This document shows positions 31,485 to 43,649 of a DNA stretch of 64,000 bases, one piece after another. The translations under genes were made by a program, and so were the position numbers. Source of the stretch: Candidatus Brockarchaeota archaeon. Lineage in GTDB: Archaea > Thermoproteota > EX4484-205 > JAAOZP01. Under the pieces are notes generated by a model that searched no databases, was not told the origin of the DNA, and saw only the letters and a program-made list of their open reading frames with translations. How positions within the stretch are numbered: the stretch's first letter is position 1; each line of letters begins with the position of its first letter. The stretch spans positions 56,455 through 120,454 of the forward strand of contig JAFNJB010000055.1 in NCBI GenBank assembly GCA_017601245.1. The letters run 5' to 3'.

Positions 31485-32399
31485 TTAATGCACTTTTGAC
31501 ATAAGTATTTCTCTAACTTCTTTTTGCAGATTTAAGAGTACTTCCCTATCTTTCTCCAATTGTTCTCTATGGTATGCGGATTCAAGCCCCTTAAGTATTG
31601 GAGTACTTATCTCTAGGATTATGGGAGATATGGATATTGCCTTCTGAACAGTTAATGCATAGAGATCCGTGCTTTCATCGGACTTGCTTACGTTAATTTC
31701 TGAACCTCCTATCCAGTAGTAGGGAATCCCACTGGGATCTTTCCTTTCTAGAATATAAATATAGTTTTCAAACTTGATTTTTGCAAGCGTGATTAACTTC
31801 ACACTGGTGTCTTTTTCCGATTTTAAACGGAAAGTTTATGTTAAGTACGTATGGTTTAGAAAGCAGGTTTTCAATCATGAATCTAGTTATCTCGGCGGTA
31901 GCTCTCCAATGAATATTGGAATTACTCACTTTAAGCTGCCTACGTTCAATACTCGTCAGAATCTCGACGCTGAAGGCTATTGCTGGAACATCGTTCAACA
32001 AGGATTGTATTGCTGCAGCTATGGTTCCACTAGTAAAGAGATTGTCGAGAGTAATATTGTCGCCAATGTTTATACCACTTACAATTATGCAGGGCTTCTC
32101 CTTAAGAATTAGCTTGAAGGTTATAACCACGGCATCAGCTGGGTTCCGGAAATGAGGTATACGTGCCTATACTTATCCCCATGTATCTTACTGGAAATCA
32201 TGTTTACTCTAAGAGGCTTATGTAGAGTTATTGACTTGCCTGCAACGCTCATCTCATGCTCCGGCTTTGCAGCTACAATCTCGCCAATCTTAAGATCTAA
32301 TAAGTGCCTCCAAAATGCTTTGAAAGCTGGAAAATGCACTCCGTCATCATTCGTAAGCAGTATGATTCTGCTCAAACCTTGTTGAAAATGATTCTTCAA
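31485..32399 (-). pseudogene. surE: 5'/3'-nucleotidase SurE disrupted by two frameshifts
   Basis: Three consecutive overlapping minus-strand ORFs (32121-32399, 31768-32130, 31485-31802) carry N-terminal (ILLTNDDG ... VAAKPEHEMSVAGKSITLHKPLRV), middle (IIVSGINIG ... SGTIAAAIQ) and C-terminal (YYWIGG ... ISISPI) SurE segments in three different frames. Confidence 0.6.
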
Positions 32400-32772: not shown

Positions 32773-33651
32773 TTAGAATATTATCATTGATATTGTCCAA
32801 GCTATGGCTGCCCCAAGTCCTATGTACGGTAGGCCTGGCTGAGGCTTTTTGAAGTATCGAACTACATGAAGTACGATTATTAATCCGACTAGACCACCGG
32901 TTAAGACGAGTATTGCAGCTATAGTTTTTCCAGTATTTAGAAAAGTCGATACAGTAAGCATATTCGGAAAGGCTACATCCCCTAAGCCTAAGAAGGCTCC
33001 TTTCCTCTCTTCTCCTTCTACGATTTTAAGCTCTCTCGGAACACTTTTAATGGGAGATACAAGCATTGTCGGCAAATTCATTTTAAGAGTTTTCTCAGCC
33101 AGGCTGACCATACCTCCAGACTTTACTGCAAGGTAATCATATATTGCCATTAGGGAAAGAAGTATTACGAGCACCTGCGGTGAAAGAGATGCTCCAAACC
33201 AGGCTGCAAGGCTAGCGCTAATGAAGACGCCAACTGCATCTACTATATACCACTTGTAAAATCTGTTAAGTAATATTAGTATTGAAGCGGAAAACAATGC
33301 TGCTATTATAATCGAAAACGGGAAGTTGGGGATTAGAATACTTATTGTCACGAAAAGCACTGTAAATGCGCTGAAATAGAATAATCCTTTTAAAATAACC
33401 TCAAGCTTAAGTTTCACTATTATCATTACTACCACAAATACGATTATTATTGAGAACATGAGGAATAATACATTCATAGGATTCTCCGGGTTTTCGAAGA
33501 GAGTTAGCTCATTGACTACGTATAGTGGTGCTAGTATTAATGAGAGGATGCCTGCTGCAACGTATAGTAGAACTATGACGAGAGCTGCTGTATTCAACCC
33601 TGGACAATGAAACCCGGCCTTACGGATAAGCTTTACTATTCTAAATCTCAA
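32773..33651 (-). CDS. presenilin/signal-peptide-peptidase (A22) family intramembrane aspartyl protease homologue
   Basis: Polytopic; YD motif (LMAIYDYLAV) and GxGD motif (FLGLGDVAFP) in consecutive TM helices, plus a P-G-L (PAL-like) element near the C-terminus. Confidence 0.55.
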   Translation of the reverse strand: MRFRIVKLIRKAGFHCPGLNTAALVIVLLYVAAGILSLILAPLYVVNELTLFENPENPMNVLFLMFSIIIVFVVVMIIVKLKLEVILKGLFYFSAFTVLFVTISILIPNFPFSIIIAALFSASILILLNRFYKWYIVDAVGVFISASLAAWFGASLSPQVLVILLSLMAIYDYLAVKSGGMVSLAEKTLKMNLPTMLVSPIKSVPRELKIVEGEERKGAFLGLGDVAFPNMLTVSTFLNTGKTIAAILVLTGGLVGLIIVLHVVRYFKKPQPGLPYIGLGAAIAWTISMIIF

Positions 33652-34846
33652 CAGGCTTTGAATCTAACTGTTGCCCTGAGCCCTCAGTTTCTTCTTTTAT
33701 AAGATTTTTAATAACTTGAGAAGTTTCAAGTATTCCAGCTATTTCCATGAAGGTTTTACTAGCCTCTTCTTCTACAATTGGTCTGATCGCATTCCAGAGA
33801 GTATCAGCAACTTCATCCATTTTTCCACATTCGAAAACGGATATTCCATATGATTTAGCTAGTTCTTTAGCTTTATCGTTTGCACTCGGTACTGCTAAGA
33901 GTATTGCATGCTTAACTTCTACATCAAGTATCTTAGAGAAGAACGAGATTACTGGAATTTCATTGATAGATTTATCTTCAAAAAATATATCTACTATAAT
34001 TCTGGTTTCTTCACTAGCCCTGTCCGTACCCGGCCTGTATGCTACCATTGTGAATGGATGCTCCAAGCCTGACTTACCGCTGAGGAAGACTGAGGTTTTT
34101 ACTTCCCAGAATGCAGACCTAAGATTCTTAACAACTGATCCGAGGTCGAGCGTTTCTATTTCAATTATTTCTTTTCTTTCTTCGTTAACACTGTAACCGT
34201 ATACTTCAAAAGGATTATAATCCTCCTCTCTATAGTTTTTCTCACATCTGCTACAGATAAATTCTTTTATCGGGTTCTGTGAAAACTCTCCGCATACTAA
34301 ACACTTGTAAAGAACTCCTTTCTCAACATAGTCGCCCCTTTCTTTTTTAATAGATTCGTTACACTTGGGACATATCATTAAACCATCGGTAACTGTGAAA
34401 ACAGTTTTGAAATCAATATATCCACACTTATTATGTTGAATCGATTCACCTCTCTTGATGCTGGTAGAGCCACAAGCAGAGCATCTAAGTCTAAGAGAAA
34501 CATTGAGAGACCCGCATTGTGGACACGCTATCCTTGTCTCTAAAAGCTCTCTAATTAAGAATCCGTCTTCAGCAAGCTCCTCAAGGATGTTTCTCACCAC
34601 CTCCCCCCTAGCATCCATGATTTTCTCAGCATCTACATAGCTTAATGCCCCTTCTAAACTGATTTTTGGCTCAATTCTGCTTATTTTTCTCTCTTTGAAG
34701 GCTTTGAGCAGGTTTAAGACTTCTTTCCTCTTATAAAGTTCCTTGCCACTGAATACCAGCATTTTCAAATACCTCCTTTTCTTCCTTACTAAAACTCCTC
34801 CTTCCCATCCTGCCGAAATAGACTCGTCCATTAGGGGGGAGTACAA
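33641..34846 (-). CDS. multi-zinc-ribbon protein with N-terminal wHTH-like region and C-terminal PD-(D/E)xK-like domain
   Basis: Three CxxC...CxxC ribbons (CPQCG...CSACG, CPKCN ... CLVCG, CSRCE). C-terminal IIVDIFFED ... LDVEVKH ... SANDKAKELAKSYGISVFE resembles the Mrr/restriction-endonuclease fold. Overlaps the presenilin-like gene by 11 nt. Confidence 0.45.
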   Translation of the reverse strand: MYSPLMDESISAGWEGGVLVRKKRRYLKMLVFSGKELYKRKEVLNLLKAFKERKISRIEPKISLEGALSYVDAEKIMDARGEVVRNILEELAEDGFLIRELLETRIACPQCGSLNVSLRLRCSACGSTSIKRGESIQHNKCGYIDFKTVFTVTDGLMICPKCNESIKKERGDYVEKGVLYKCLVCGEFSQNPIKEFICSRCEKNYREEDYNPFEVYGYSVNEERKEIIEIETLDLGSVVKNLRSAFWEVKTSVFLSGKSGLEHPFTMVAYRPGTDRASEETRIIVDIFFEDKSINEIPVISFFSKILDVEVKHAILLAVPSANDKAKELAKSYGISVFECGKMDEVADTLWNAIRPIVEEEASKTFMEIAGILETSQVIKNLIKEETEGSGQQLDSKPVEI

Positions 34847-35096
34847 TCATTTTATCAAGACCTTCAGGGGGTTAGACGATATTTTTTAAGCAGATGAGTT
34901 AAAATGCTTCTGTCAGTAATCATTTAGACTCACATCATTTAAAGCTAGTTTTTAAGGGAAAGTACCTCCTTCTCATGTTTAACAATTATCAATTATTTTT
35001 ATCATTTAAAATTCTTCACGCAAATCCGATTGTCAAGAAAATTTTAGACAAGATTTATATTAAGATTGGTACAAAATCCTTGCTTTCAATATCAAC

Positions 35097-37286
35097 ATGG
35101 GAGATAAATGGAATAATCAAGGAGAGATGCAGATGTTTCAGACAATCAAACAATCTGATAATAACCTGTTTGAGCAGGGTTTGAAGAAGATAGTTAAGAG
35201 AGATGGTAGAATCGTTGACTTCGACAAGAATAAGATAACCGAAGCCATATGGAAGGCAATAAAATCCGTAGGTGGACAGGATAGAGAACTTGCAGAAAAG
35301 CTTTCAAATCAGGTTGTTGAACGTTTAGAGAGGCAACTTAAGCCGGGTGAAATCCCGCATGTAGAGCAGGTTCAGGACTTAGTAGAGCAGGTTCTCGTAG
35401 AGAATAACTTGTACAACGTTGCAAAATCCTATATTCTTTACAGGGCTCTTCATGCTCAAATAAGAGAATTTGTAGATAGTTATCTGGAGAATAAGAGTTG
35501 GCTCGTTAGAGAAAATGCTAATACAACATACTCGCTACAGGCATTGAACTTCCATATTTCTTCTCAGGTGATATCGCAATATTGGCTTCACAGGATTTTC
35601 AATAAGGGTAGAACTGAGATAAGAGAAGCACATTTAAACGGTGACTTTCATATTCATAATCTGGGTATCCTTGGACCATATTGTGTAGGATGGGATTTGA
35701 AAGACTTGTTGATGACGGGCTTTAAGGGTGTTAGGGGTAAAGTCTCAGCTAAGCCTGCAAAACACTTCCGAGTTGCCCTTGGACACGTTGTAAACTTCGT
35801 CTTCACATTACAGGGAGAAGCCGCCGGTGCTCAAGCCTTCTCCAACTTTGACACCTACCTGGCTCCATTCATAAGATATGATAACCTTGATTACAAATCG
35901 GTTAAACAGGCTCTTCAAGAATTCATGTTTAACATGAATATTCCAACTAGAGTAGGTTTTCAAACACCTTTTTCAAACATAACCCTAGACCTTAAGGTTC
36001 CAAGCTTCATGGAGGATGAACCAGTTATAATAGGTGGAGAAACTATGGATGCAACCTACGGCGATTTCCAAGAAGAAATGGATATTTTCAATAGGGCTCT
36101 GGCTGAAGTAATGCTGGAGGGTGATGCTGTTGGAAGAGTATTCACCTTTCCAATTCCAACTGTAAACATAACGAAAGATTTTGATTGGGATGATGAAACA
36201 ATAAGGAAAGTATTAGAGACTTCTGCAAAATACGGCATTCCGTATTTCGCCAACTTCATAAACTCCGATATGAACCCTGAGGATGTACGTTCAATGTGTT
36301 GCCATCTAAGGCTGGATAAGAGAGAGTTGAAGAAGAGAGGCGGAGGACTTTTCGGAGCAAACCCGCTAACGGGCTCTATTGGAGTAGTTACAATAAACAT
36401 GCCGAGAATAGGTTATTTGTCTAAGAGTGAAGGCGATTTCTTTGAAAGGCTCGATAGGCTCATGGTCCTTGCTAAAGACGTTCTGGAAATAAAGAGGAAG
36501 TGGCTTGAAAAGTTTACAGAAGCTGGTCTATATCCGTATTCAAAGTTCTACTTGAGACATATAAAAGAGGCCTTCGGATCATACTGGAAGAATCACTTCA
36601 GTACTATTGGACTCGTAGGCATGAATGAAGCCTGTCTAAACTTCCTGGGATGTAGCATAGGAGACCCTGAAGGCTTAAGCTTCTCCATAAAAGTTTTAGA
36701 CTTCATGAGGAAGAGACTACAGGATTTCCAAGAAGAAACTGGGAATATCTTTAACCTTGAAGCAACACCTGCTGAAGGTACTTCTCATAGACTTGCTAAG
36801 ATAGATAAGAAGATGTATCCGAATATAATAGTTGCAAATGAGGAAAATGTCAAGAAAGGTGCAGCACCTTACTATACTAACTCAACTCACTTGCCAGTAT
36901 ACTATACAGACGACCTCTGGGAATACCTTAGACTTCAAGAGCCGCTTCAAATAAGGTATACTGGTGGGACCGTCGTACATATATGGCTTGGCGAAAGCAA
37001 TCCTCCAGTAGATTCTATTGCAACATTAATCAGGAAAATATGTGAGAACTTTAAGCTACCGTATTTTACAATAACGCCAACATTCAGCATTTGTCCAGAA
37101 GATGGTTATTTATCCGGTGAACAGCCTAATTGTCCCAAATGTGGAAGAATTACAGAAGTCTATTCTAGAGTCGTAGGGTATTTAAGACCGGTTGACCAAT
37201 GGAATTCAGGAAAGCAGGAAGAATTTAAACAGAGAAAAATGTTTGATAAAGCTATAACAAGAAAAGTTGTTGAGATAACAAAATAG
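35097..37286 (+). CDS. nrdD: anaerobic (class III) ribonucleoside-triphosphate reductase
   Basis: N-terminal ATP-cone (KRDGRIVDFDKNKITEAI), C-terminal Zn-ribbon CPEDG...CPKCG, and glycyl-radical motif RVVGYLRPV. 729 aa. Confidence 0.9.
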   Translation: MGDKWNNQGEMQMFQTIKQSDNNLFEQGLKKIVKRDGRIVDFDKNKITEAIWKAIKSVGGQDRELAEKLSNQVVERLERQLKPGEIPHVEQVQDLVEQVLVENNLYNVAKSYILYRALHAQIREFVDSYLENKSWLVRENANTTYSLQALNFHISSQVISQYWLHRIFNKGRTEIREAHLNGDFHIHNLGILGPYCVGWDLKDLLMTGFKGVRGKVSAKPAKHFRVALGHVVNFVFTLQGEAAGAQAFSNFDTYLAPFIRYDNLDYKSVKQALQEFMFNMNIPTRVGFQTPFSNITLDLKVPSFMEDEPVIIGGETMDATYGDFQEEMDIFNRALAEVMLEGDAVGRVFTFPIPTVNITKDFDWDDETIRKVLETSAKYGIPYFANFINSDMNPEDVRSMCCHLRLDKRELKKRGGGLFGANPLTGSIGVVTINMPRIGYLSKSEGDFFERLDRLMVLAKDVLEIKRKWLEKFTEAGLYPYSKFYLRHIKEAFGSYWKNHFSTIGLVGMNEACLNFLGCSIGDPEGLSFSIKVLDFMRKRLQDFQEETGNIFNLEATPAEGTSHRLAKIDKKMYPNIIVANEENVKKGAAPYYTNSTHLPVYYTDDLWEYLRLQEPLQIRYTGGTVVHIWLGESNPPVDSIATLIRKICENFKLPYFTITPTFSICPEDGYLSGEQPNCPKCGRITEVYSRVVGYLRPVDQWNSGKQEEFKQRKMFDKAITRKVVEITK

Positions 37287-37878: not shown

Positions 37879-39921
37879 TTGAAAAACATTAAAAGTTTAG
37901 TGCTAACCTCTCTTGTGATCCTGTCGTTAGTCATCTACCCCATCTTCGTCCCAGTGACAATCGTAAGGGCACAGGTTCCCAGGGAGGATACTCTCGTCGT
38001 CTCTAGTGGCTGGCAACCGGAAATTTTCAACCCCTTCTCCGGATCGCCCTGTTGGGGAACATGGCTAATGTATCCATCATTATACATGTACAGCTTTGTT
38101 TCTGATGAGCTAATACCTTACTTAGCTGAGAGCTACAGGTGGATCGACATTTACACTCTAGAAATTAAGATAAGAGATGCAGCAAAATGGTCAGATGGTA
38201 CTCCAATAACAGCTGACGACGTTAAATATACTCTTGAAGCCGGCAAGAGACTTGGCTCTCCCTGGGCGGGCGTGTGGGACTATCTGGAGAGAGTAGACGT
38301 AGTGGATTCTAAAACGGTTCGTCTAGTGACATCGGCTGCGAAGCTTAATACATTTACATTCTTACAAATATTATACTATCCACCCATAGTTCCAAAGCAT
38401 AGATGGGAGGTATTAGAGAAGCAATATGGTTCAAAGCTACCAACAGACTTTACAGATAGAGATCCAAAAGCAATAGTAACCGGCGGTCCATATAGAATGA
38501 AAGAATATTCAGAAGGAGAAACAGCTCTATACGAAAGAGATGACAATTGGTGGGGCAAAACTATCTTTGGTCTCCCCGCACCGAAGTATATCCTACACAA
38601 GAAGTATGCTTCTAACGAGCTCGCTGCTGCAGCGTTTGAAAAAGGTGAGCTTGACTTAGCGTCACACTTCTTCGTAAACATATGGGAAATGTGGACAGTC
38701 AAAGGCAAGGCTAGGGGAACATACTTGAAGAATCCTCCATACTACTTAGGCAGCGATCACGCTCTGCTCGTAATAAACTGGAAGGAGCCTCTCATAAGCT
38801 CAGATCTTAGGAGGGCGATTGCATTTGCAATCGACTATGAAAGATTAACTCGAGTAGCTCAATGTGGATACAGTATCAAGTCTTCTCCAAGCATGGTAAA
38901 ATGGGGTATGTATGAAAAGTGGATGGATAAGGAACTAGTTGAGAAATACGGTTACTACTACGATCCAAACAAAGCCAAACAAATACTCGACGCTGCCGGC
39001 ATAAAAGATACTAATGGTAACGGAATAAGGGAAATCGGCGGTAAAGACCTAAGGCTGAAGATAGAGGTTCCGATGGGATGGACAGACTGGATGGACATGT
39101 GTAACATAATAGCAGAAAATCTAAAGGCTGTGGGTATTGACGTAAAGCCAGAATTCCCAGACTTCTCTGTTTGGGCCGATAAAATAGACAAGGGAGACTT
39201 TGACATGGTCATATTCTGGTCCGTCGGTGGAGGCGTAGACCATCCGTGGAATATATTCAGGTATACACTTGATCCGAGATTGGACAGGCCTTGGGGAGGA
39301 AACATCGCTGGATACACTAAGACAGATGCCATGCCATTAATAGACCAGGCTGCTAAGCTCAATCCAGAGAAGGACTTTATACAGCTTAAACAAATATACA
39401 GCGAACTACAGCGGATTGCCCTCACAGACCTTCCAGTCATAGTGATGTTCGAGAAGCCACTGTGGTACGAGTATGGTGAGGACTACTGGGTTGGCTTTCC
39501 AAATGAAGAGAACAAGAGATGGTTTGCTGGAATGTACACTGAATCTTGGCCAAACAATCTACCGATGCTGTTCTACATTGCTAAGAAAGGTCAGAAATCT
39601 ATCGTACCGGAGTGGATAGAAAATACAAAGTTCCCAGTGTCGAAATTGTTCAAGGATTGGGCAGTGGCTCCAACGGTTGAGCAAAGAAGAATTGAAGAAA
39701 TAGGAGAAACGTTAAGAAGTCTCAGTGGTGCTCTATCTTCCATATCTTCTCAGCTCAGTAGTGCTGTTAGCGAATTGAGTAGTGCTGTTAGCGAAGTGAA
39801 AGCGGCATCAAAGAGTACTGTTGAATCCATCAATTCAATAAACAATCTCCTAATGGTTCAAATAGTTCTTACGATCATAGTCTTGCTTGCAGTAATCTTC
39901 TTGATAGTCAGAAAGAAATAA
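37879..39921 (+). CDS. oppA: ABC peptide transporter substrate-binding protein (family 5, OppA/DppA-like) with C-terminal TM anchor
   Basis: Signal peptide, about 600-aa SBP_bac_5-like body, Ser/Ala-rich linker with a 2x21-nt tandem repeat, C-terminal hydrophobic helix + RKK. TTG start. Confidence 0.8.
   Translation: MKNIKSLVLTSLVILSLVIYPIFVPVTIVRAQVPREDTLVVSSGWQPEIFNPFSGSPCWGTWLMYPSLYMYSFVSDELIPYLAESYRWIDIYTLEIKIRDAAKWSDGTPITADDVKYTLEAGKRLGSPWAGVWDYLERVDVVDSKTVRLVTSAAKLNTFTFLQILYYPPIVPKHRWEVLEKQYGSKLPTDFTDRDPKAIVTGGPYRMKEYSEGETALYERDDNWWGKTIFGLPAPKYILHKKYASNELAAAAFEKGELDLASHFFVNIWEMWTVKGKARGTYLKNPPYYLGSDHALLVINWKEPLISSDLRRAIAFAIDYERLTRVAQCGYSIKSSPSMVKWGMYEKWMDKELVEKYGYYYDPNKAKQILDAAGIKDTNGNGIREIGGKDLRLKIEVPMGWTDWMDMCNIIAENLKAVGIDVKPEFPDFSVWADKIDKGDFDMVIFWSVGGGVDHPWNIFRYTLDPRLDRPWGGNIAGYTKTDAMPLIDQAAKLNPEKDFIQLKQIYSELQRIALTDLPVIVMFEKPLWYEYGEDYWVGFPNEENKRWFAGMYTESWPNNLPMLFYIAKKGQKSIVPEWIENTKFPVSKLFKDWAVAPTVEQRRIEEIGETLRSLSGALSSISSQLSSAVSELSSAVSEVKAASKSTVESINSINNLLMVQIVLTIIVLLAVIFLIVRKK
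39757..39798 (+). repeat. 2 x 21-nt in-frame tandem repeat inside the oppA linker
   Basis: agtagtgctgttagcgaattg / agtagtgctgttagcgaagtg (20/21 identical), encoding SSAVSEL/SSAVSEV. Confidence 0.8.
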
Positions 39922-39973
39922 ATAAAAAAATAATAGAAAGAGTTATATACTACCTTTTTTCTTTTTCTATATA

Positions 39974-41014
39974 ATGTCTAGAGAAGAGAGAAAACCATTA
40001 AATCCAATGCTTATTTACTTACTTAGAAGAATGTGCTTTTTACTTGCGACGTTTTTCGTCTTCACGATAATAATATTCTCTCTTCCACGTATGATTCCAG
40101 GAAATCCATTAGCCATATTACTTAGAGATATTCTCAATAGAATGACACTTCAGCCGGAAACGATTAAGGAAATCGAGAGGAAATTACTTGAACAATACGG
40201 ATTGGATAAACCGTTACACATACAGTTCACAGATTTCGTATCTAGAATTTTTAAGGGAGATTTAGGAATTTCTTTCTATTTCCGTATACCTGTTGCGGAA
40301 GTAATCTTTTCTAGAATTCCTTGGACACTAATGCTACTCGTACCTTCGACGATAGTATCGTGGATAATAGGTAATTTCTTGGGGGCTATAGCTGCTTATA
40401 AGAGGGGGAAGGCAACTGATAACATATTGATGTCAATTTTCCTTACTCTATCTCAAGTACCATACTATTGGTTGGCAATGATATTACTCTTTATTTTTGC
40501 AGTCAGATACGAAATCTTCCCGCTTGGAGGAACTTGGGATACTAGTCGTTTCATAACCCCCTCTCTTACTTTAGAATTCATAACCGACTATTTGGCACAC
40601 TACATTCTTCCCTTTGCATCTATAGTTTTGAGTGCAATAGGCGGGTGGGCAATAGGCATGAGGGTTATGGCAATATACGAGTTGGGTTCTGATTATGTGG
40701 TATATTCTGACTCATTGGGGTTGAAGGATAGTAAAATCCTTGAGTATGTTTTTAAAAACTCCATACTGCCTCAAATCACCGGCCTCGCTTTAAACTTTGG
40801 TTCTGTAGTTGGAGGCCAACTTCTTACAGAGCTCGTTTTCAACTATAGAGGAATGGGGCGAATACTCTATGATTCCATAAATAAGCTAGATTATCCGTTG
40901 ATAGAGGGAATATTTATAATACTAATTTCTACGTTACTTATTGCAAACTTGATAGTGGATTTCATTTATGCCTATCTCGATCCTCGGGTGAGAACAGGCT
41001 ATGCAGAAGCGTAG
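39974..41014 (+). CDS. oppB: ABC peptide transporter permease (OppB/DppB-like)
   Basis: Six TM helices, BPD-transport EAA-like loop; directly follows oppA. Confidence 0.85.
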   Translation: MSREERKPLNPMLIYLLRRMCFLLATFFVFTIIIFSLPRMIPGNPLAILLRDILNRMTLQPETIKEIERKLLEQYGLDKPLHIQFTDFVSRIFKGDLGISFYFRIPVAEVIFSRIPWTLMLLVPSTIVSWIIGNFLGAIAAYKRGKATDNILMSIFLTLSQVPYYWLAMILLFIFAVRYEIFPLGGTWDTSRFITPSLTLEFITDYLAHYILPFASIVLSAIGGWAIGMRVMAIYELGSDYVVYSDSLGLKDSKILEYVFKNSILPQITGLALNFGSVVGGQLLTELVFNYRGMGRILYDSINKLDYPLIEGIFIILISTLLIANLIVDFIYAYLDPRVRTGYAEA

Positions 41015-41870
41015 GAAGTTATTATTAATTCCTAAGGAGATGTTCAAGATAAAGAAATTCACATTCAGCATTAGTGTACTAGTAGTGGTTATACTCGTTG
41101 CATTAGTGGGACCACCTTTATATCCTAAGTTAAACCTTTCATTATACGCTGGCACACCCGATACTCCTCCGAGTAACGAATTTCCACTTGGTACTGATAG
41201 GAACGGTAGAGATATACTGTCCCATCTCCTTATTGGCATAAGGACATCTCTTTACGTTGGAGTTATTGCAACAATCATAGCATTAACAATAGGAATTCTC
41301 GTTGGCAGTTTTGCTGGATTCAAGGGTGGTGTAATCGACGAAATACTAATGATGATTACTAACATAATATATACTCTCCCAGCGATACTTCTGATGATAC
41401 TCATAGCCTCATACCTAAAGGAGAGGTCGCCGCTTTTTGTATCTATAGTAATTGGTGTTACATCATGGCCTTGGCTGGCCAGAGCAGTCAGAGCGCAGAT
41501 AATGAGCCTTAAGGAGAGAGAGTTTGTACAAATGTCTAAGATGTCCGGTTTGAAGGGGTATGAAATCATATTCAAGGATCTATTGCCGAATATGGCGTCT
41601 TATATATTCATGAGCGTGGCCCTATTACTCTCAATATCTATGCTTGCAGAGGCAGGGTTGAGCATGATAGGCGCAGGTATAGATCCTTCAACGGAGAGCT
41701 CGTTAGGAGTAATGCTTCAAAGAGCTCAACAAGGTGAAGCAATCCGTTTAGGAAGGTGGTGGTGCTTCGTGCCTCCTGGAATCGTACTAGTCCTTATTAC
41801 AACATCACTACTCATGCTGTCAACTTCTATAGATGAATATTTTAACCCTAGGTTGAGAGGTGGGAAGTAA
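41001..41870 (+). CDS. oppC: ABC peptide transporter permease (OppC/DppC-like)
   Basis: 289 aa permease; 14-nt overlap with oppB. Confidence 0.85.
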   Translation: MQKRRKLLLIPKEMFKIKKFTFSISVLVVVILVALVGPPLYPKLNLSLYAGTPDTPPSNEFPLGTDRNGRDILSHLLIGIRTSLYVGVIATIIALTIGILVGSFAGFKGGVIDEILMMITNIIYTLPAILLMILIASYLKERSPLFVSIVIGVTSWPWLARAVRAQIMSLKEREFVQMSKMSGLKGYEIIFKDLLPNMASYIFMSVALLLSISMLAEAGLSMIGAGIDPSTESSLGVMLQRAQQGEAIRLGRWWCFVPPGIVLVLITTSLLMLSTSIDEYFNPRLRGGK

Positions 41871-42841
41871 TGAGCCTTCTCAAGGCTGAAGGCTTAAGAG
41901 CATATTACAATTCTCCAATTGGTCAAGTTAAGGCTGTTGAAGACATAAGCCTATCGGTAGAGGAAGATGACTTCATAGGTATAGCCGGAGAATCTGGCTG
42001 TGGAAAATCTACCCTTGCAAACGTTCTTATGATGAATATAAGGCCTCCTCTAAAGCTCTACGGAGGAAGGCTTTTCTTAAATGGCGAAGAAATATCGGAT
42101 AAAAGTAGGGATTATGTTAAGGAGAAATTCTGGGGTACGGTAATTTCCATCGTGCCCCAGGCTGCTTTAAACTCTTTAATGCCAACTAAGAGGACTAAGG
42201 AATTCATAATAGACGTTGTGCAGGCTCATAAGAAAATCAGTGAGAAAGAGATTATAGAGATGGCTAAGAACAAGTTCGTTGAACTCGGGCTTTCTCCAAG
42301 CGTATTAGACCTTTACCCGCATGAATTGAGTGGAGGAATGAGGCAGAGAGTGATCATAGTTGCCTCTACGATATTGAATCCTAAGGTACTCATAGCAGAT
42401 GAGCCGACGTCGGCACTCGACGTCTCAACTCAAAAACAAGTCTTAAAAATGATGTTAGACCTGCAAAGAAAGCAATCGATTAGGAGCACTATTCTCATAA
42501 CTCATGATATTGCTATACAGAGGCAGGTCTGCAATAAGCTAATAGTAATGTATGCGGGTAGAATTGTAGAGTATGGAAATGTAGATGATGTTTTGTATAA
42601 TCCCAAGCATCCGTACACAAAGGGTTTGATAAACTCGGTCCTAACACCGGAACCGGAAGTAAGGCGAAGAGGCCTGATGGCATTGTTTATACCTGGTGAG
42701 CCGCCGAATCTAGTTAATCCTCCACCGGGATGCTCTTTCCACCCCAGATGCCCGTTTGCAATGCCCAGGTGTAAATCAGAAACCCCAGGATTAACATATA
42801 GTGGTGATAGGGCTGTTGCATGCTGGCTGTATATACTCTAG
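41870..42841 (+). CDS. oppD: ABC peptide transporter ATP-binding protein (OppD/DppD-like)
   Basis: Walker A GESGCGKST, signature LSGGMRQR, Walker B LIADEPTSALD, C-terminal oligopeptide-transporter domain with a Cys cluster. Confidence 0.9.
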   Translation: MSLLKAEGLRAYYNSPIGQVKAVEDISLSVEEDDFIGIAGESGCGKSTLANVLMMNIRPPLKLYGGRLFLNGEEISDKSRDYVKEKFWGTVISIVPQAALNSLMPTKRTKEFIIDVVQAHKKISEKEIIEMAKNKFVELGLSPSVLDLYPHELSGGMRQRVIIVASTILNPKVLIADEPTSALDVSTQKQVLKMMLDLQRKQSIRSTILITHDIAIQRQVCNKLIVMYAGRIVEYGNVDDVLYNPKHPYTKGLINSVLTPEPEVRRRGLMALFIPGEPPNLVNPPPGCSFHPRCPFAMPRCKSETPGLTYSGDRAVACWLYIL

Positions 42842-42851
42842 GTGATGAGTC

Positions 42852-43649
42852 ATGTTATCAAGTATCATTTTGAAAGTTGAGGACCTGACCAAGGTGTACG
42901 AGACTGGTCTTTTCAAGAAGAAGTACATTACTGCAGTTGACAAAGTGTCTTTCAATGTTTCAAGAGGCGAAATAGTCTCTCTAGTCGGTGAAAGCGGTAG
43001 TGGTAAAACGACTGTTGCTAAGATTATATTAAGACTCCTACCTCCCACTTCTGGAAGAGTTTTCTATAACGGTGAAGACATATGGGAGAAGAAAAGCATA
43101 GAGGATTTGAAGAAATACTGGCGTGAGGTCCATGCGGTTTTCCAAGACCCATTCGCTTCTTTCAACCCTGTTTACAAAATAGACAGAGTGTTAGAGCAGG
43201 CTTTTAACCTAATGGGTACTCCTGTTGATGAAAACGCTATTAAAGAAGCATTGAAGGAAGTTGCATTATTGCCTAGCGAGGTCTTAGGGAAGTATCCCCA
43301 TGAGCTCTCCGGAGGCCAGAGGCAGAGATTAATGATTGCAAGATGCTTCCTGCTTAAGCCAAAGCTTATCCTGGCAGACGAGCCTGTTTCCATGGTTGAT
43401 GCTTCAACTAGAGCGAGCATAGTGAACCTTTTCCTCAGATTGAGAGACGAGTATAAGACTTCAATAATCTTCATAACTCACGACCTAGGATTAGCATACT
43501 TCGTCAGCGATAGAATATTAATCATGTATAAAGGTAGAATAGTGGAAGAGGGCTCACCTGATGAGTTAATAAGCTCTCCCAAGGACGCTTATACAAGGAG
43601 CCTCTTAGAATCCGTACCTCTCTTATATGGAAAATGGGCGGGCTTCTAG
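42852..43649 (+). CDS. oppF: ABC peptide transporter ATP-binding protein (OppF/DppF-like)
   Basis: Walker A GESGSGKTT, LSGGQRQR, ILADEP. Confidence 0.9.
   Translation: MLSSIILKVEDLTKVYETGLFKKKYITAVDKVSFNVSRGEIVSLVGESGSGKTTVAKIILRLLPPTSGRVFYNGEDIWEKKSIEDLKKYWREVHAVFQDPFASFNPVYKIDRVLEQAFNLMGTPVDENAIKEALKEVALLPSEVLGKYPHELSGGQRQRLMIARCFLLKPKLILADEPVSMVDASTRASIVNLFLRLRDEYKTSIIFITHDLGLAYFVSDRILIMYKGRIVEEGSPDELISSPKDAYTRSLLESVPLLYGKWAGF

Follow-up and report, generated by a model that had tools for sequence, protein, structure and literature searches.

Regulated intramembrane proteolysis modules, such as a site-2 protease with its anti-sigma factor, act on a membrane-anchored substrate, and the pair is conserved across lineages. 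For archaeal presenilin homologs (PSHs) the natural substrate is unknown (PMC9263693) and, as their partners are not known either, a conserved neighbor gene would be a valuable lead. The TackOD1 output domain (arCOG06883; Galperin et al., 2018) spans ~200 residues, carries five CxxC motifs and one HxxC motif, and is of obscure function (PMC5847659). Thaumarchaeal TackOD1 proteins are encoded in type IV pilus loci (PMC4858521).

The window studied here is a 64,000-nucleotide stretch of DNA from a Candidatus Brockarchaeota archaeon. It contains two adjacent minus-strand open reading frames, here called gene A (upstream) and gene B (downstream), which the first-pass annotation had presented as a translationally coupled operon and an undescribed regulator-protease system. 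Both reading frames are real. Our analysis makes it likely that they are two separate, individually known genes, neighbors in one Brockarchaeota-related sublineage rather than the halves of a coupled system. Because the pair occurs in a single subclade and the genes do not overlap, ordinary gene order accounts for the arrangement better than a new system does.

Gene B (positions 32773..33597; this and all coordinates below are of minus-strand features) encodes a 274-amino-acid PSH of the presenilin/SPP family (A22), an assignment that rests on NCBIfam, Pfam, PDB entry 4HYC and the PGAP annotation. The protein matched the PSH equivalog model NF041679 of NCBIfam with 148 bits (cut-off 125) and the Pfam family SPP (PF06550) with an E value of 9.5e-35 and 120.9 bits (cut-off 23.9). 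Its match to 4HYC (E value of 1.8e-24) was nearly full-length, covering residues 13-288 of 301. The first catalytic aspartate lies in the YD motif (Tyr153-Asp154, codons at 33136..33141), which aligned with the YD of 4HYC (AIYDYLAV with AVYDAISV), and the second lies in the GLGD motif (Gly204-Asp207, codons at 32977..32988), which aligned with the GMGD of 4HYC (LGLGDVAFP with MGMGDLIMP). The PSH alignment shows no variation at Y153, D154, G204, G206 or D207. Hydropathy analysis detected several hydrophobic segments and, together with the 4HYC alignment, suggests a topology of nine transmembrane helices. By these matches gene B is a standard archaeal PSH that has kept both catalytic aspartates and is a predicted protease, and the first-pass assignment of the downstream protein as a presenilin/SPP homolog with YD and GLGD motifs was correct.

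Gene B is distantly related to MCMJR1, the Methanoculleus marisnigri PSH (4HYC; MEROPS A22), and the YD, GxGD and C-terminal QPGLP motifs of the two proteins are in register. The two catalytic helices are joined by a cytoplasmic loop that is shorter in gene B than in MCMJR1; otherwise nothing striking distinguishes it. Compared with PSHs from other archaeal phyla, gene B shows about 29-36% identity.

Gene A (33641..34762) encodes a soluble, 373-amino-acid protein of the TackOD1 family, as judged from Pfam, homolog N-termini and hydropathy. The match to the Pfam model PF18551 (E values of 4e-26 to 5e-26, 92 bits, cut-off 32) spans residues 12-192 of the protein and profile positions 7-188 of 188. 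The family to which the zinc-ribbon protein belongs is thus TackOD1, and not TFIIB/TFS, which the first-pass annotation had named as an example of a known family. The start codon is most likely ATG 34762, because all 12 of the close homologs in the alignment begin with MLVFS, and because the sequence further upstream contains indels between relatives that are not multiples of three, so that its coding character is not conserved. A Shine-Dalgarno-like sequence, AAGGAGGT (34771..34778), was found by inspection 8 nt 5' of this ATG, and the alignment shows GAGGTAA or GGGGTAA kept at the site in relatives. The length of 401 residues reported at first is a longest-ORF artifact. Public gene calls for gene A (396/401 amino acids), like the open reading frame 33641-34846, place the start too far upstream. 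No transmembrane segment was detected in the gene A protein by Kyte-Doolittle hydropathy with a 19-residue window; the highest mean was 1.33. The protein is soluble, as initially described, and cytoplasmic, and its family is already known.

The N-terminal segment of gene A (residues 1-76; 34535..34762) is helical and falls within the Pfam TackOD1 model according to profile matches. Among the top 98 homologs of the C-terminal domain of gene A, 11 matched HTH_45 and five matched TrmB. Residues 1-76 are probably a winged helix-turn-helix (wHTH), which we infer and do not observe, because the AF2 model of this segment is of low confidence. Three serial zinc ribbons follow (residues 80-173; 34244..34525) with the motifs CPQC, CSAC, HNKC, CPKC, CLVC and CSRC, as delimited by alignment. 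Their cysteines and histidine are invariant among close gene A homologs and almost fully conserved across the family as a whole. The full-length AF2 model, built from a 12-sequence alignment, was poor (pLDDT 50) and we used its zinc-ribbon part alone, which was predicted at pLDDT 77-91 even with so shallow an alignment. The serial arrangement of three ribbons in the first-pass annotation stands, but the motifs are not three canonical CxxC...CxxC pairs: gene A has the eleven conserved cysteines, five CxxC and one HxxC, that define TackOD1. Gene A resembles the published TackOD1 proteins in this Cys/His pattern, in the match over residues 12-192 and in its stand-alone architecture, which is among those published (PMC5847659). 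It goes beyond them in that an Mrr-like domain of the PD-(D/E)xK fold and then a long helix follow the ribbons. It also differs in its neighbors, which are nrdD and PSH rather than the type IV pilus loci of published thaumarchaeal TackOD1 proteins (PMC4858521).

The PSH start is most likely TTG 33597, since the N-terminus encoded from this codon (MNTAAL...) agrees with the N-termini of homologs and with the 274-amino-acid PGAP call named PSH. This start leaves a 43-nt gap after the gene A stop codon. The 11-nt overlap of stop and start that had been described was a product of longest-ORF calling, and translational coupling is left without support, as the stop codon neither overlaps nor abuts the corrected downstream start. 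The distance between gene A and PSH varies among the loci that contain gene A, with gene calls giving 5, 42 and 75 nt.

A BRE/TATA-like element, AAAGCTTATCC (33624..33634), was identified by its conservation within the 43-nt gap and ends 26 nt 5' of the PSH start. Whether or not a locus has gene A, the pattern AAAG[C/T]TTATCC occurs 26-34 nt 5' of the PSH start, and it was kept at the same place in six of the seven lineages compared; three of these six lack gene A. The idea that AAAGYTTATCC serves as a promoter word throughout the genome was rejected; the window contains four matches, compared with 4.9 expected, and conservation of the pattern 5' of PSH is therefore site-specific. Its conservation and position indicate that AAAGCTTATCC is probably the promoter of PSH itself, and gene B would then be transcribed from its own element in the spacer. 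No obvious T-rich terminator was found between gene A and PSH, so co-transcription by read-through is possible.

The distribution of the pairing was surveyed at 80 PSH loci from GTDB species-representative genomes, with fetched flanks of up to 5 kb. A TackOD1/Mrr-like open reading frame was detected in the flanks of four of these loci, all from one Brockarchaeota-related subclade, and a TackOD1 neighbor was found at none of the 67 distant PSH loci (0/67). The co-occurrence across archaeal genomes that a functional system would lead one to look for is therefore limited, among the loci surveyed, to a single subclade. Loci carrying gene A share one gene order: nrdD is divergent from gene A, PSH follows gene A on the same strand, a ferredoxin gene follows PSH on the opposite strand, and surE lies beyond it in the orientation of gene A. 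Gene A orthologs, which were found at 11 loci and whose protein identity goes down to about 55-62%, are always directly 5' of PSH and on the same strand. In the sister clade, represented by nine loci that group together as one clade in a neighbor-joining tree, NrdD is still encoded beside PSH but gene A is missing, and neither tblastn nor HMM searches found it in that clade. The PSHs of the sister clade are 66-70% identical, and NrdD, PSH, ferredoxin and SurE are all kept.

The adjacency of gene A and PSH has outlasted considerable divergence. This weighs against our preferred explanation, as it could reflect selection and not inertia alone.

The genomic contexts of distant gene A relatives were looked up for a handful of cases from four lineages. 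No PSH was found near the gene in any of the four. The distant relatives adjoin genes for type IV pilus components, GT2 glycosyltransferases, PilZ proteins and small GTPases, and elsewhere the TackOD1-Mrr module occurs in fusions with REC or GGDEF domains. The undescribed regulator-protease system proposed at the outset thus gives way to a known family, TackOD1, without conserved linkage to PSH.

The C-terminus of gene A is a long helix (residues 315-361; 33680..33820), defined by alignment, AF2 and hydropathy and predicted at pLDDT 78-94. It holds the most conserved stretch of the protein in the clade, EEEASKxFMExAxILETSQ (invariant columns among close homologs). The hydrophobicity of the helix is too low for a membrane-spanning segment, and hydropathy gave no support to the idea that gene A contains a transmembrane segment serving as a protease substrate. 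Comparable C-terminal helices are present in distant relatives, including P0024, whose locus does not contain PSH.

These features bear on the strongest rival to our explanation, a clade-specific partnership in which gene A and PSH share a transcript and function jointly. The partnership could take the form of docking via the C-terminal helix, of control of PSH expression by gene A, or of control of gene A by a fragment that PSH releases. Such a partnership would fit the constant placement of gene A at all 11 loci, the short gap and the exceptional conservation of the helix. We nevertheless regard it as unlikely, as the genes do not overlap, the motif upstream of PSH is conserved with or without gene A, the sister clade has PSH without gene A, and the pairing is absent from the distant PSH loci surveyed and from the contexts examined in four distant gene A lineages. 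Gene A also has no segment able to serve as an intramembrane substrate, and P0024 has a similar helix but no PSH among its neighbors. The likeness of the locus to regulated intramembrane proteolysis modules is limited to one feature, a cytoplasmic protein of DNA-binding type encoded beside an intramembrane protease; unlike those modules, gene A lacks a transmembrane segment and the pairing is limited to one subclade. A more specific proposal, in which gene A was recruited as a partner of PSH through docking of the helix on PSH or the membrane, with proteolysis controlling gene A or being controlled by it, we consider very unlikely. If true, this partnership would offer the first genetic clue to what an archaeal PSH does in the cell.

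The intergenic region of about 335 nt (34763-35096) between gene A and the divergently transcribed nrdD, the gene for an anaerobic ribonucleotide reductase, contains strongly conserved blocks. One of these is a conserved non-coding block, TTTAAA..ATGTGAGTCTAAATGATTACTGACAGAAGCATTTTAACT (34897..34943), delimited by alignment. Its core pattern is exact in all 11 loci with gene A and absent from all loci without gene A, and the block is a candidate promoter or operator of gene A. We also considered whether the block encodes an RNA and rejected this reading: no Rfam match was obtained, and RNAalifold gave -0.8 kcal/mol with zero covarying pairs and no supported structure. A C/D-box reading was likewise discarded, since the boxes do not keep their positions from one relative to another.

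The divergent arrangement raises the possibility that gene A encodes a transcription factor acting locally on nrdD, a functional analog of zinc-ribbon regulators such as NrdR. The shared intergenic region with its conserved blocks, found in every gene A locus, and the combination of a wHTH-like segment with zinc ribbons in gene A are consistent with this role. The sister clade, however, retains nrdD with its promoter-proximal block without gene A, the gene A relatives looked up elsewhere do not adjoin nrdD, and profile searches revealed neither an ATP-cone nor homology to NrdR in gene A. Control of nrdD is therefore improbable, somewhat more so than a partnership with PSH in the general form.

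Residues 206-312 of gene A (33827..34147) form a divergent Mrr-like domain of the PD-(D/E)xK fold, recognized with AF2 and Foldseek and marked by the sequences GKSGLEHPFT, IIVDIFF and FSKILD. A domain-only AF2 model, built with a deeper alignment, had a pLDDT of 91.4 and the topology alpha-beta-beta-beta-alpha-beta-alpha-beta. The best Foldseek match in the PDB was 1y88/AF1548 (E value of 6e-7, TM 0.45), followed by Cdn1, MspJI, NucS, Can2 and Bax1. Sequence-profile searches that compared the C-terminal domain with the PDB found no significant match, with 1y88 appearing at no better than an E value of 0.26, so the structural comparison was used to assign the fold. The Mrr/PD-(D/E)xK-like fold that had been suspected from motif order is thus borne out by the model and by the 1y88 match.

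A profile search with the domain found 430 related 50% clusters. Pfam Mrr_cat was matched by 19 of the 98 top homologs (best E value of 9e-17), but the domain in the window itself had no Mrr_cat match at E values up to 0.1. The link between gene A and Mrr_cat, as judged from these profiles, is transitive, through the family members that match. NA-iREase1 (PF22722), a family of inactive restriction endonucleases, was matched by seven of the 98. In 68 of the 98, as in gene A, TackOD1 is followed by the Mrr-like domain and a long helix.

The domain has the same alpha-beta-beta-beta-alpha-beta core as Mrr_cat/AF1548 (PF04471, 1y88) but has not kept the canonical D...(D/E)xK triad. Thr238 occupies the place of the beta-2 Asp and Phe260 that of the beta-3 Lys, although Asp258 is present, and gene A thus lacks the catalytic motif of D in beta-2 and (D/E)xK in beta-3. 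Thr238 is invariant in 12 of 12 close homologs. Among 142 domains of the family, 76 have Asp at position 238, 43 have Ser or Thr there, and none has Lys at position 260; H235, K277 and D280 are nearly invariant. K277 from helix alpha-2 could conceivably stand in as a catalytic lysine. Reading IIVD as the "PD" and EVK as the "ExK" was rejected, since EVK comes after helix alpha-2 in the model and position 284 is variable in the family. The earlier placement of the catalytic motif was accordingly mistaken; LDVEVKH covers the last part of helix alpha-2 and the loop leading into beta-4, and is not part of beta-3.

The least probable of the alternatives, and one we give hardly any credence, is that gene A is an active, zinc-ribbon-targeted nuclease of the Mrr type (type IV restriction-like) or a defense effector: the Mrr-like fold, the nucleases among which its nearest structural matches lie and the homologs with Mrr_cat matches would suit such a role, but Mrr_cat does not match the domain itself, Thr238 and the family-wide absence of the beta-3 lysine speak against catalysis, some homologs match the inactive NA-iREase1 family, and the neighbors are housekeeping genes and not a defense island.

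Under the explanation we prefer, that of two known genes side by side, the gene A protein would have a regulatory or "output" role and bind nucleic acids in a zinc-dependent way. Its Mrr-like domain may function in binding or oligomerization without cutting.

For PSH biology, gene A does not provide the lead that a conserved neighbor would be, as the gene order is lineage-specific and PSH is unchanged where gene A is missing. A modest by-product of the analysis is the Mrr-like domain that very often comes after TackOD1 and lies outside both the published description of ~200 residues and the Pfam model. The domain carries a signature peculiar to its family, GxSGxxHxF[D/S/T]...D...FAKxxD. The pilus, glycosyltransferase, PilZ and small-GTPase neighbors of the distant relatives hint at a role of TackOD1-Mrr proteins in the control of cell-surface structures, which may help later work on the TackOD1 family.

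Two neighbouring minus-strand open reading frames are present in the window, which the first-pass annotation had read as a translationally coupled operon with an 11-nt overlap of stop and start. Their longest-ORF coordinates (33641-34846 and 32773-33651) are too long for both genes. The start of gene A, which encodes a zinc-ribbon protein of the TackOD1 family (PF18551), was placed at the ATG at 34762 (33641-34762, minus strand) because the Shine-Dalgarno-like sequence AAGGAGGT precedes this ATG, the N-terminus there reads MLVFS in 12 of 12 close homologues, and the stretch from the ORF-list start to this ATG differs in relatives by indels whose lengths are not divisible by three, one of them a large deletion in a single relative. 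The length of gene A in public records MBO3770006.1 and MEM2343819.1 is 396 or 401 amino acids. A length of 373 amino acids is predicted instead from the MLVFS start, from the Shine-Dalgarno-like sequence and from 34763-34846 (minus strand), which has a non-coding pattern. Gene B, encoding the presenilin homologue PSH, was assigned to 32773-33597 (minus strand, 274 amino acids) from the N-termini of its homologues (MNTAA... or MNMAT...) and from NCBI's own call of 274 amino acids on the identical sequence. The stop codon of gene A (TAG, 33641-33643) is thus separated from the PSH start by 43 nt, so the overlap is an artefact and the evidence for translational coupling falls with it.

The 43-nt gap contains a promoter-like motif, AAAGCTTATCC (33624-33634, minus strand), which ends 26 nt before the PSH start. 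The pattern AAAG[C/T]TTATCC[G/A]T was found 26-34 nt upstream of PSH in six of seven compared lineages, three of them without gene A, and the seventh has the TATA-like sequence AAACGTTTAAAAA; AAAG[C/T]TTATCC is not a common word in the window. The position and composition of the motif fit an archaeal BRE/TATA element that would drive a PSH mRNA with a short leader or none. Gene A is preceded, about 135 nt ahead of its start, by a conserved non-coding block of 45 nt (34897-34943, minus strand), which hardly varies among relatives even though their proteins share only about 60% identity. The core pattern of this block was exact in every locus with gene A (11 of 11) and absent from all loci lacking the gene, and the block had no Rfam match and no supported RNA fold. 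Possible diverged remnants of it (…TTAATCCATTACTAAAC…) occur in the NrdD-PSH spacer of loci without gene A. The NrdD-proximal block ATATAAATCTTGTCTAAA (35043-35060) is common, in diverged form, to loci with and without gene A. The sequence ATATAAAT[C/T]TT[G/C]TCT[A/G]AA..TTT[C/T]TTGA[C/T]AA adjoins the nrdD start in every relative, whether gene A is present or not (35030-35060 in the window; 5849 and 5883 in the relatives' loci L009 and L010, and others), and is probably the nrdD promoter or operator. In loci lacking gene A, about 110-130 nt separate the NrdD and PSH promoter regions. This distribution of blocks argues that gene A and its own upstream region form a cassette between the two promoter regions.

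At the domain level, the first-pass annotation was largely right. The membrane protein is indeed a presenilin/SPP homologue: it scored 148 bits against the NCBIfam PSH equivalog model (cut-off 125), matched Pfam SPP with an E-value of 9.5e-35, and aligned over nearly the full chain with 4HYC, the solved PSH of Methanoculleus marisnigri (E 1.8e-24). In that alignment the YD and GLGD motifs of gene B fall on YD and GMGD of 4HYC, and these residues are invariant in a PSH alignment reaching down to about 28% identity. By these sequence criteria gene B is an ordinary archaeal presenilin homologue, predicted to be a standard PSH protease. Archaeal PSH/SPP enzymes are still listed without a known physiological role (PMC9263693).

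Gene A belongs to the TackOD1 family and combines a wHTH-like segment and zinc ribbons with a degenerate Mrr-like domain. The Pfam TackOD1 match covers residues 12-192 (92 bits; cut-off 32), and the metal-binding pattern of five CxxC and one HxxC is exactly that published for TackOD1, whose function was called obscure by its describers and whose members were assigned to arCOG06883 (PMC5847659). This arCOG was reported mostly from thaumarchaeal type IV pilus loci (PMC4858521). No transmembrane segment was found in gene A (the top 19-residue hydropathy mean was 1.33), so it is not an obvious intramembrane substrate. Conservation within the clade is highest in the C-terminal helix (EEEASKxFMExAxILETSQ), which is polar; similar helices are seen in distant relatives, among them P0024 and P0030. 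Gene A is most likely a nucleic-acid-binding regulator. TackOD1 forms fused to REC or to GGDEF also exist.

The C-terminal 180 residues of gene A matched no Pfam model by themselves. Scored against 1.84 billion cluster representatives, their profile detected 430 relatives at E <= 1e-3; of the 98 top relatives, 68 also contain TackOD1, 19 match Pfam Mrr_cat (best E 9e-17) and seven match the inactive-REase family NA-iREase1. The AlphaFold2 model of the domain, built from a 35-sequence alignment, was confident (pLDDT 91.4), with the topology alpha-beta-beta-beta-alpha-beta-alpha-beta followed by a 47-residue helix. Foldseek matched it in the PDB first to 1y88/AF1548 (E 6e-7) and then to Cdn1, MspJI, NucS, Can2 and Bax1, all of the PD-(D/E)xK fold, which confirms the fold guessed from sequence in the first pass. 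The canonical catalytic motif is missing from the model: Thr238, invariant in the clade, takes the place of the canonical Asp where beta-2 begins, and Asp258-Ile-Phe260 stands at the beta-3 (D/E)xK. Among the 142 family domains compared, 76 have Asp and 43 have Ser or Thr at position 238, and none has Lys at position 260. Gly229, Ser231, Gly232, His235, Lys277, Asp280 and Pro292 are nearly invariant, and the family has its own signature, GxSGxxHxF[D/S/T]...D...FAKxxD...P. Judged from sequence and model, the family should not be classed among active Mrr nucleases; Lys277 of helix alpha-2 may complete an alternative active site. The Mrr-like domain (33827-34147, minus strand) is recognised by no current Pfam model, and the TackOD1 description makes no mention of it.

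Among 5.8 billion clusters, full-length gene A homologues made up only 12 (clustering at 90% identity), which share 55-100% identity with the query; beyond these, identity falls to about 25-37%. Every locus with such a homologue has the order NrdD (reverse), gene A and PSH (both forward), ferredoxin (reverse) and SurE (forward); the whole neighbourhood is syntenic, and the pair is therefore not independent evidence for a functional link. Sister-group MAGs retain NrdD, PSH (66-70% identical), ferredoxin and SurE, and neither tblastn nor HMM search found gene A in their loci; an apparent 2.4-kb gap in one of them is an intein-containing NrdD. Scanning GTDB with each species represented by a single genome gave 80 PSH loci, whose flanks were inspected up to 5 kb (shorter on small contigs). 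A TackOD1/Mrr-like ORF was present in the flanks of only four, all in the close, Brockarchaeota-related clade, and was missing from those of nine other loci of that clade. Loci without gene A form a single clade in a neighbour-joining PSH tree, so one gain or one loss explains the pattern.

The best explanation is that these are two independent genes, each belonging to an already known family, adjacent through lineage-specific gene order. A functional link restricted to this clade keeps a low probability, because gene A and PSH are never separated where gene A exists, but positive support for such a link is absent. The new coupled system first proposed is not supported, as the overlap is gone and the pairing is syntenic and confined to one clade, with no TackOD1/Mrr-like ORF in the fetched flanks (up to 5 kb) of 67 distant PSH loci (Thermoplasmata, Archaeoglobi, ANME-1, Methanosarcinales, DHVE2 and Bathyarchaeia) and no PSH in any context looked up for distant gene A relatives.

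Other features of the neighbourhood varied among relatives. SurE (5'-nucleotidase; 31485-32399, minus strand) is split over three frames in the window, the frame changing near 32142 and again within the overlap at 31741-31835, and is a single intact ORF of 282-294 amino acids in all relatives; either the split copy is a pseudogene or the Candidatus Brockarchaeota MAG from which the window comes has an assembly error here. NrdD of the window (35097-37286) is an intein-free 729-amino-acid ORF. Two inteins are apparent in NrdD of one Brockarchaeota relative (1511 amino acids; L009 1167-5702) and one in that of another (1099 amino acids, with intein and LAGLIDADG matches; L010 2435-5734). HerA-NurA directly follows nrdD in several relatives. 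In the window a plus-strand ORF run (37879-43649) separates nrdD from the HerA-NurA pair and, from its first gene, an SBP_bac_5 solute-binding protein, is probably an ABC peptide transporter operon.

Distant gene A relatives have neighbours of other kinds. In three Methanomethylicaceae loci the relative follows a DEAD/ResIII helicase and is convergent with a type IV pilus cluster (T2SSE and two T2SSF). Two further relatives, matched in the TackOD1 part only (L094 and L095), are respectively convergent with a 1962-amino-acid GT2 protein and part of a gene string that also includes PAPS reductase, a GTPase-PilZ protein and GT2. P0024, the closest outgroup of gene A, is immediately preceded by a small Ras/Arf-like GTPase and has a GT2 glycosyltransferase nearby. 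These cell-surface and signalling neighbours (L091-L097) hint that the TackOD1 family controls surface structures. What is mildly new here is the recurrent combination of TackOD1 with an Mrr-like domain, along with the pilus, polysaccharide and GTPase genes to which it is linked.
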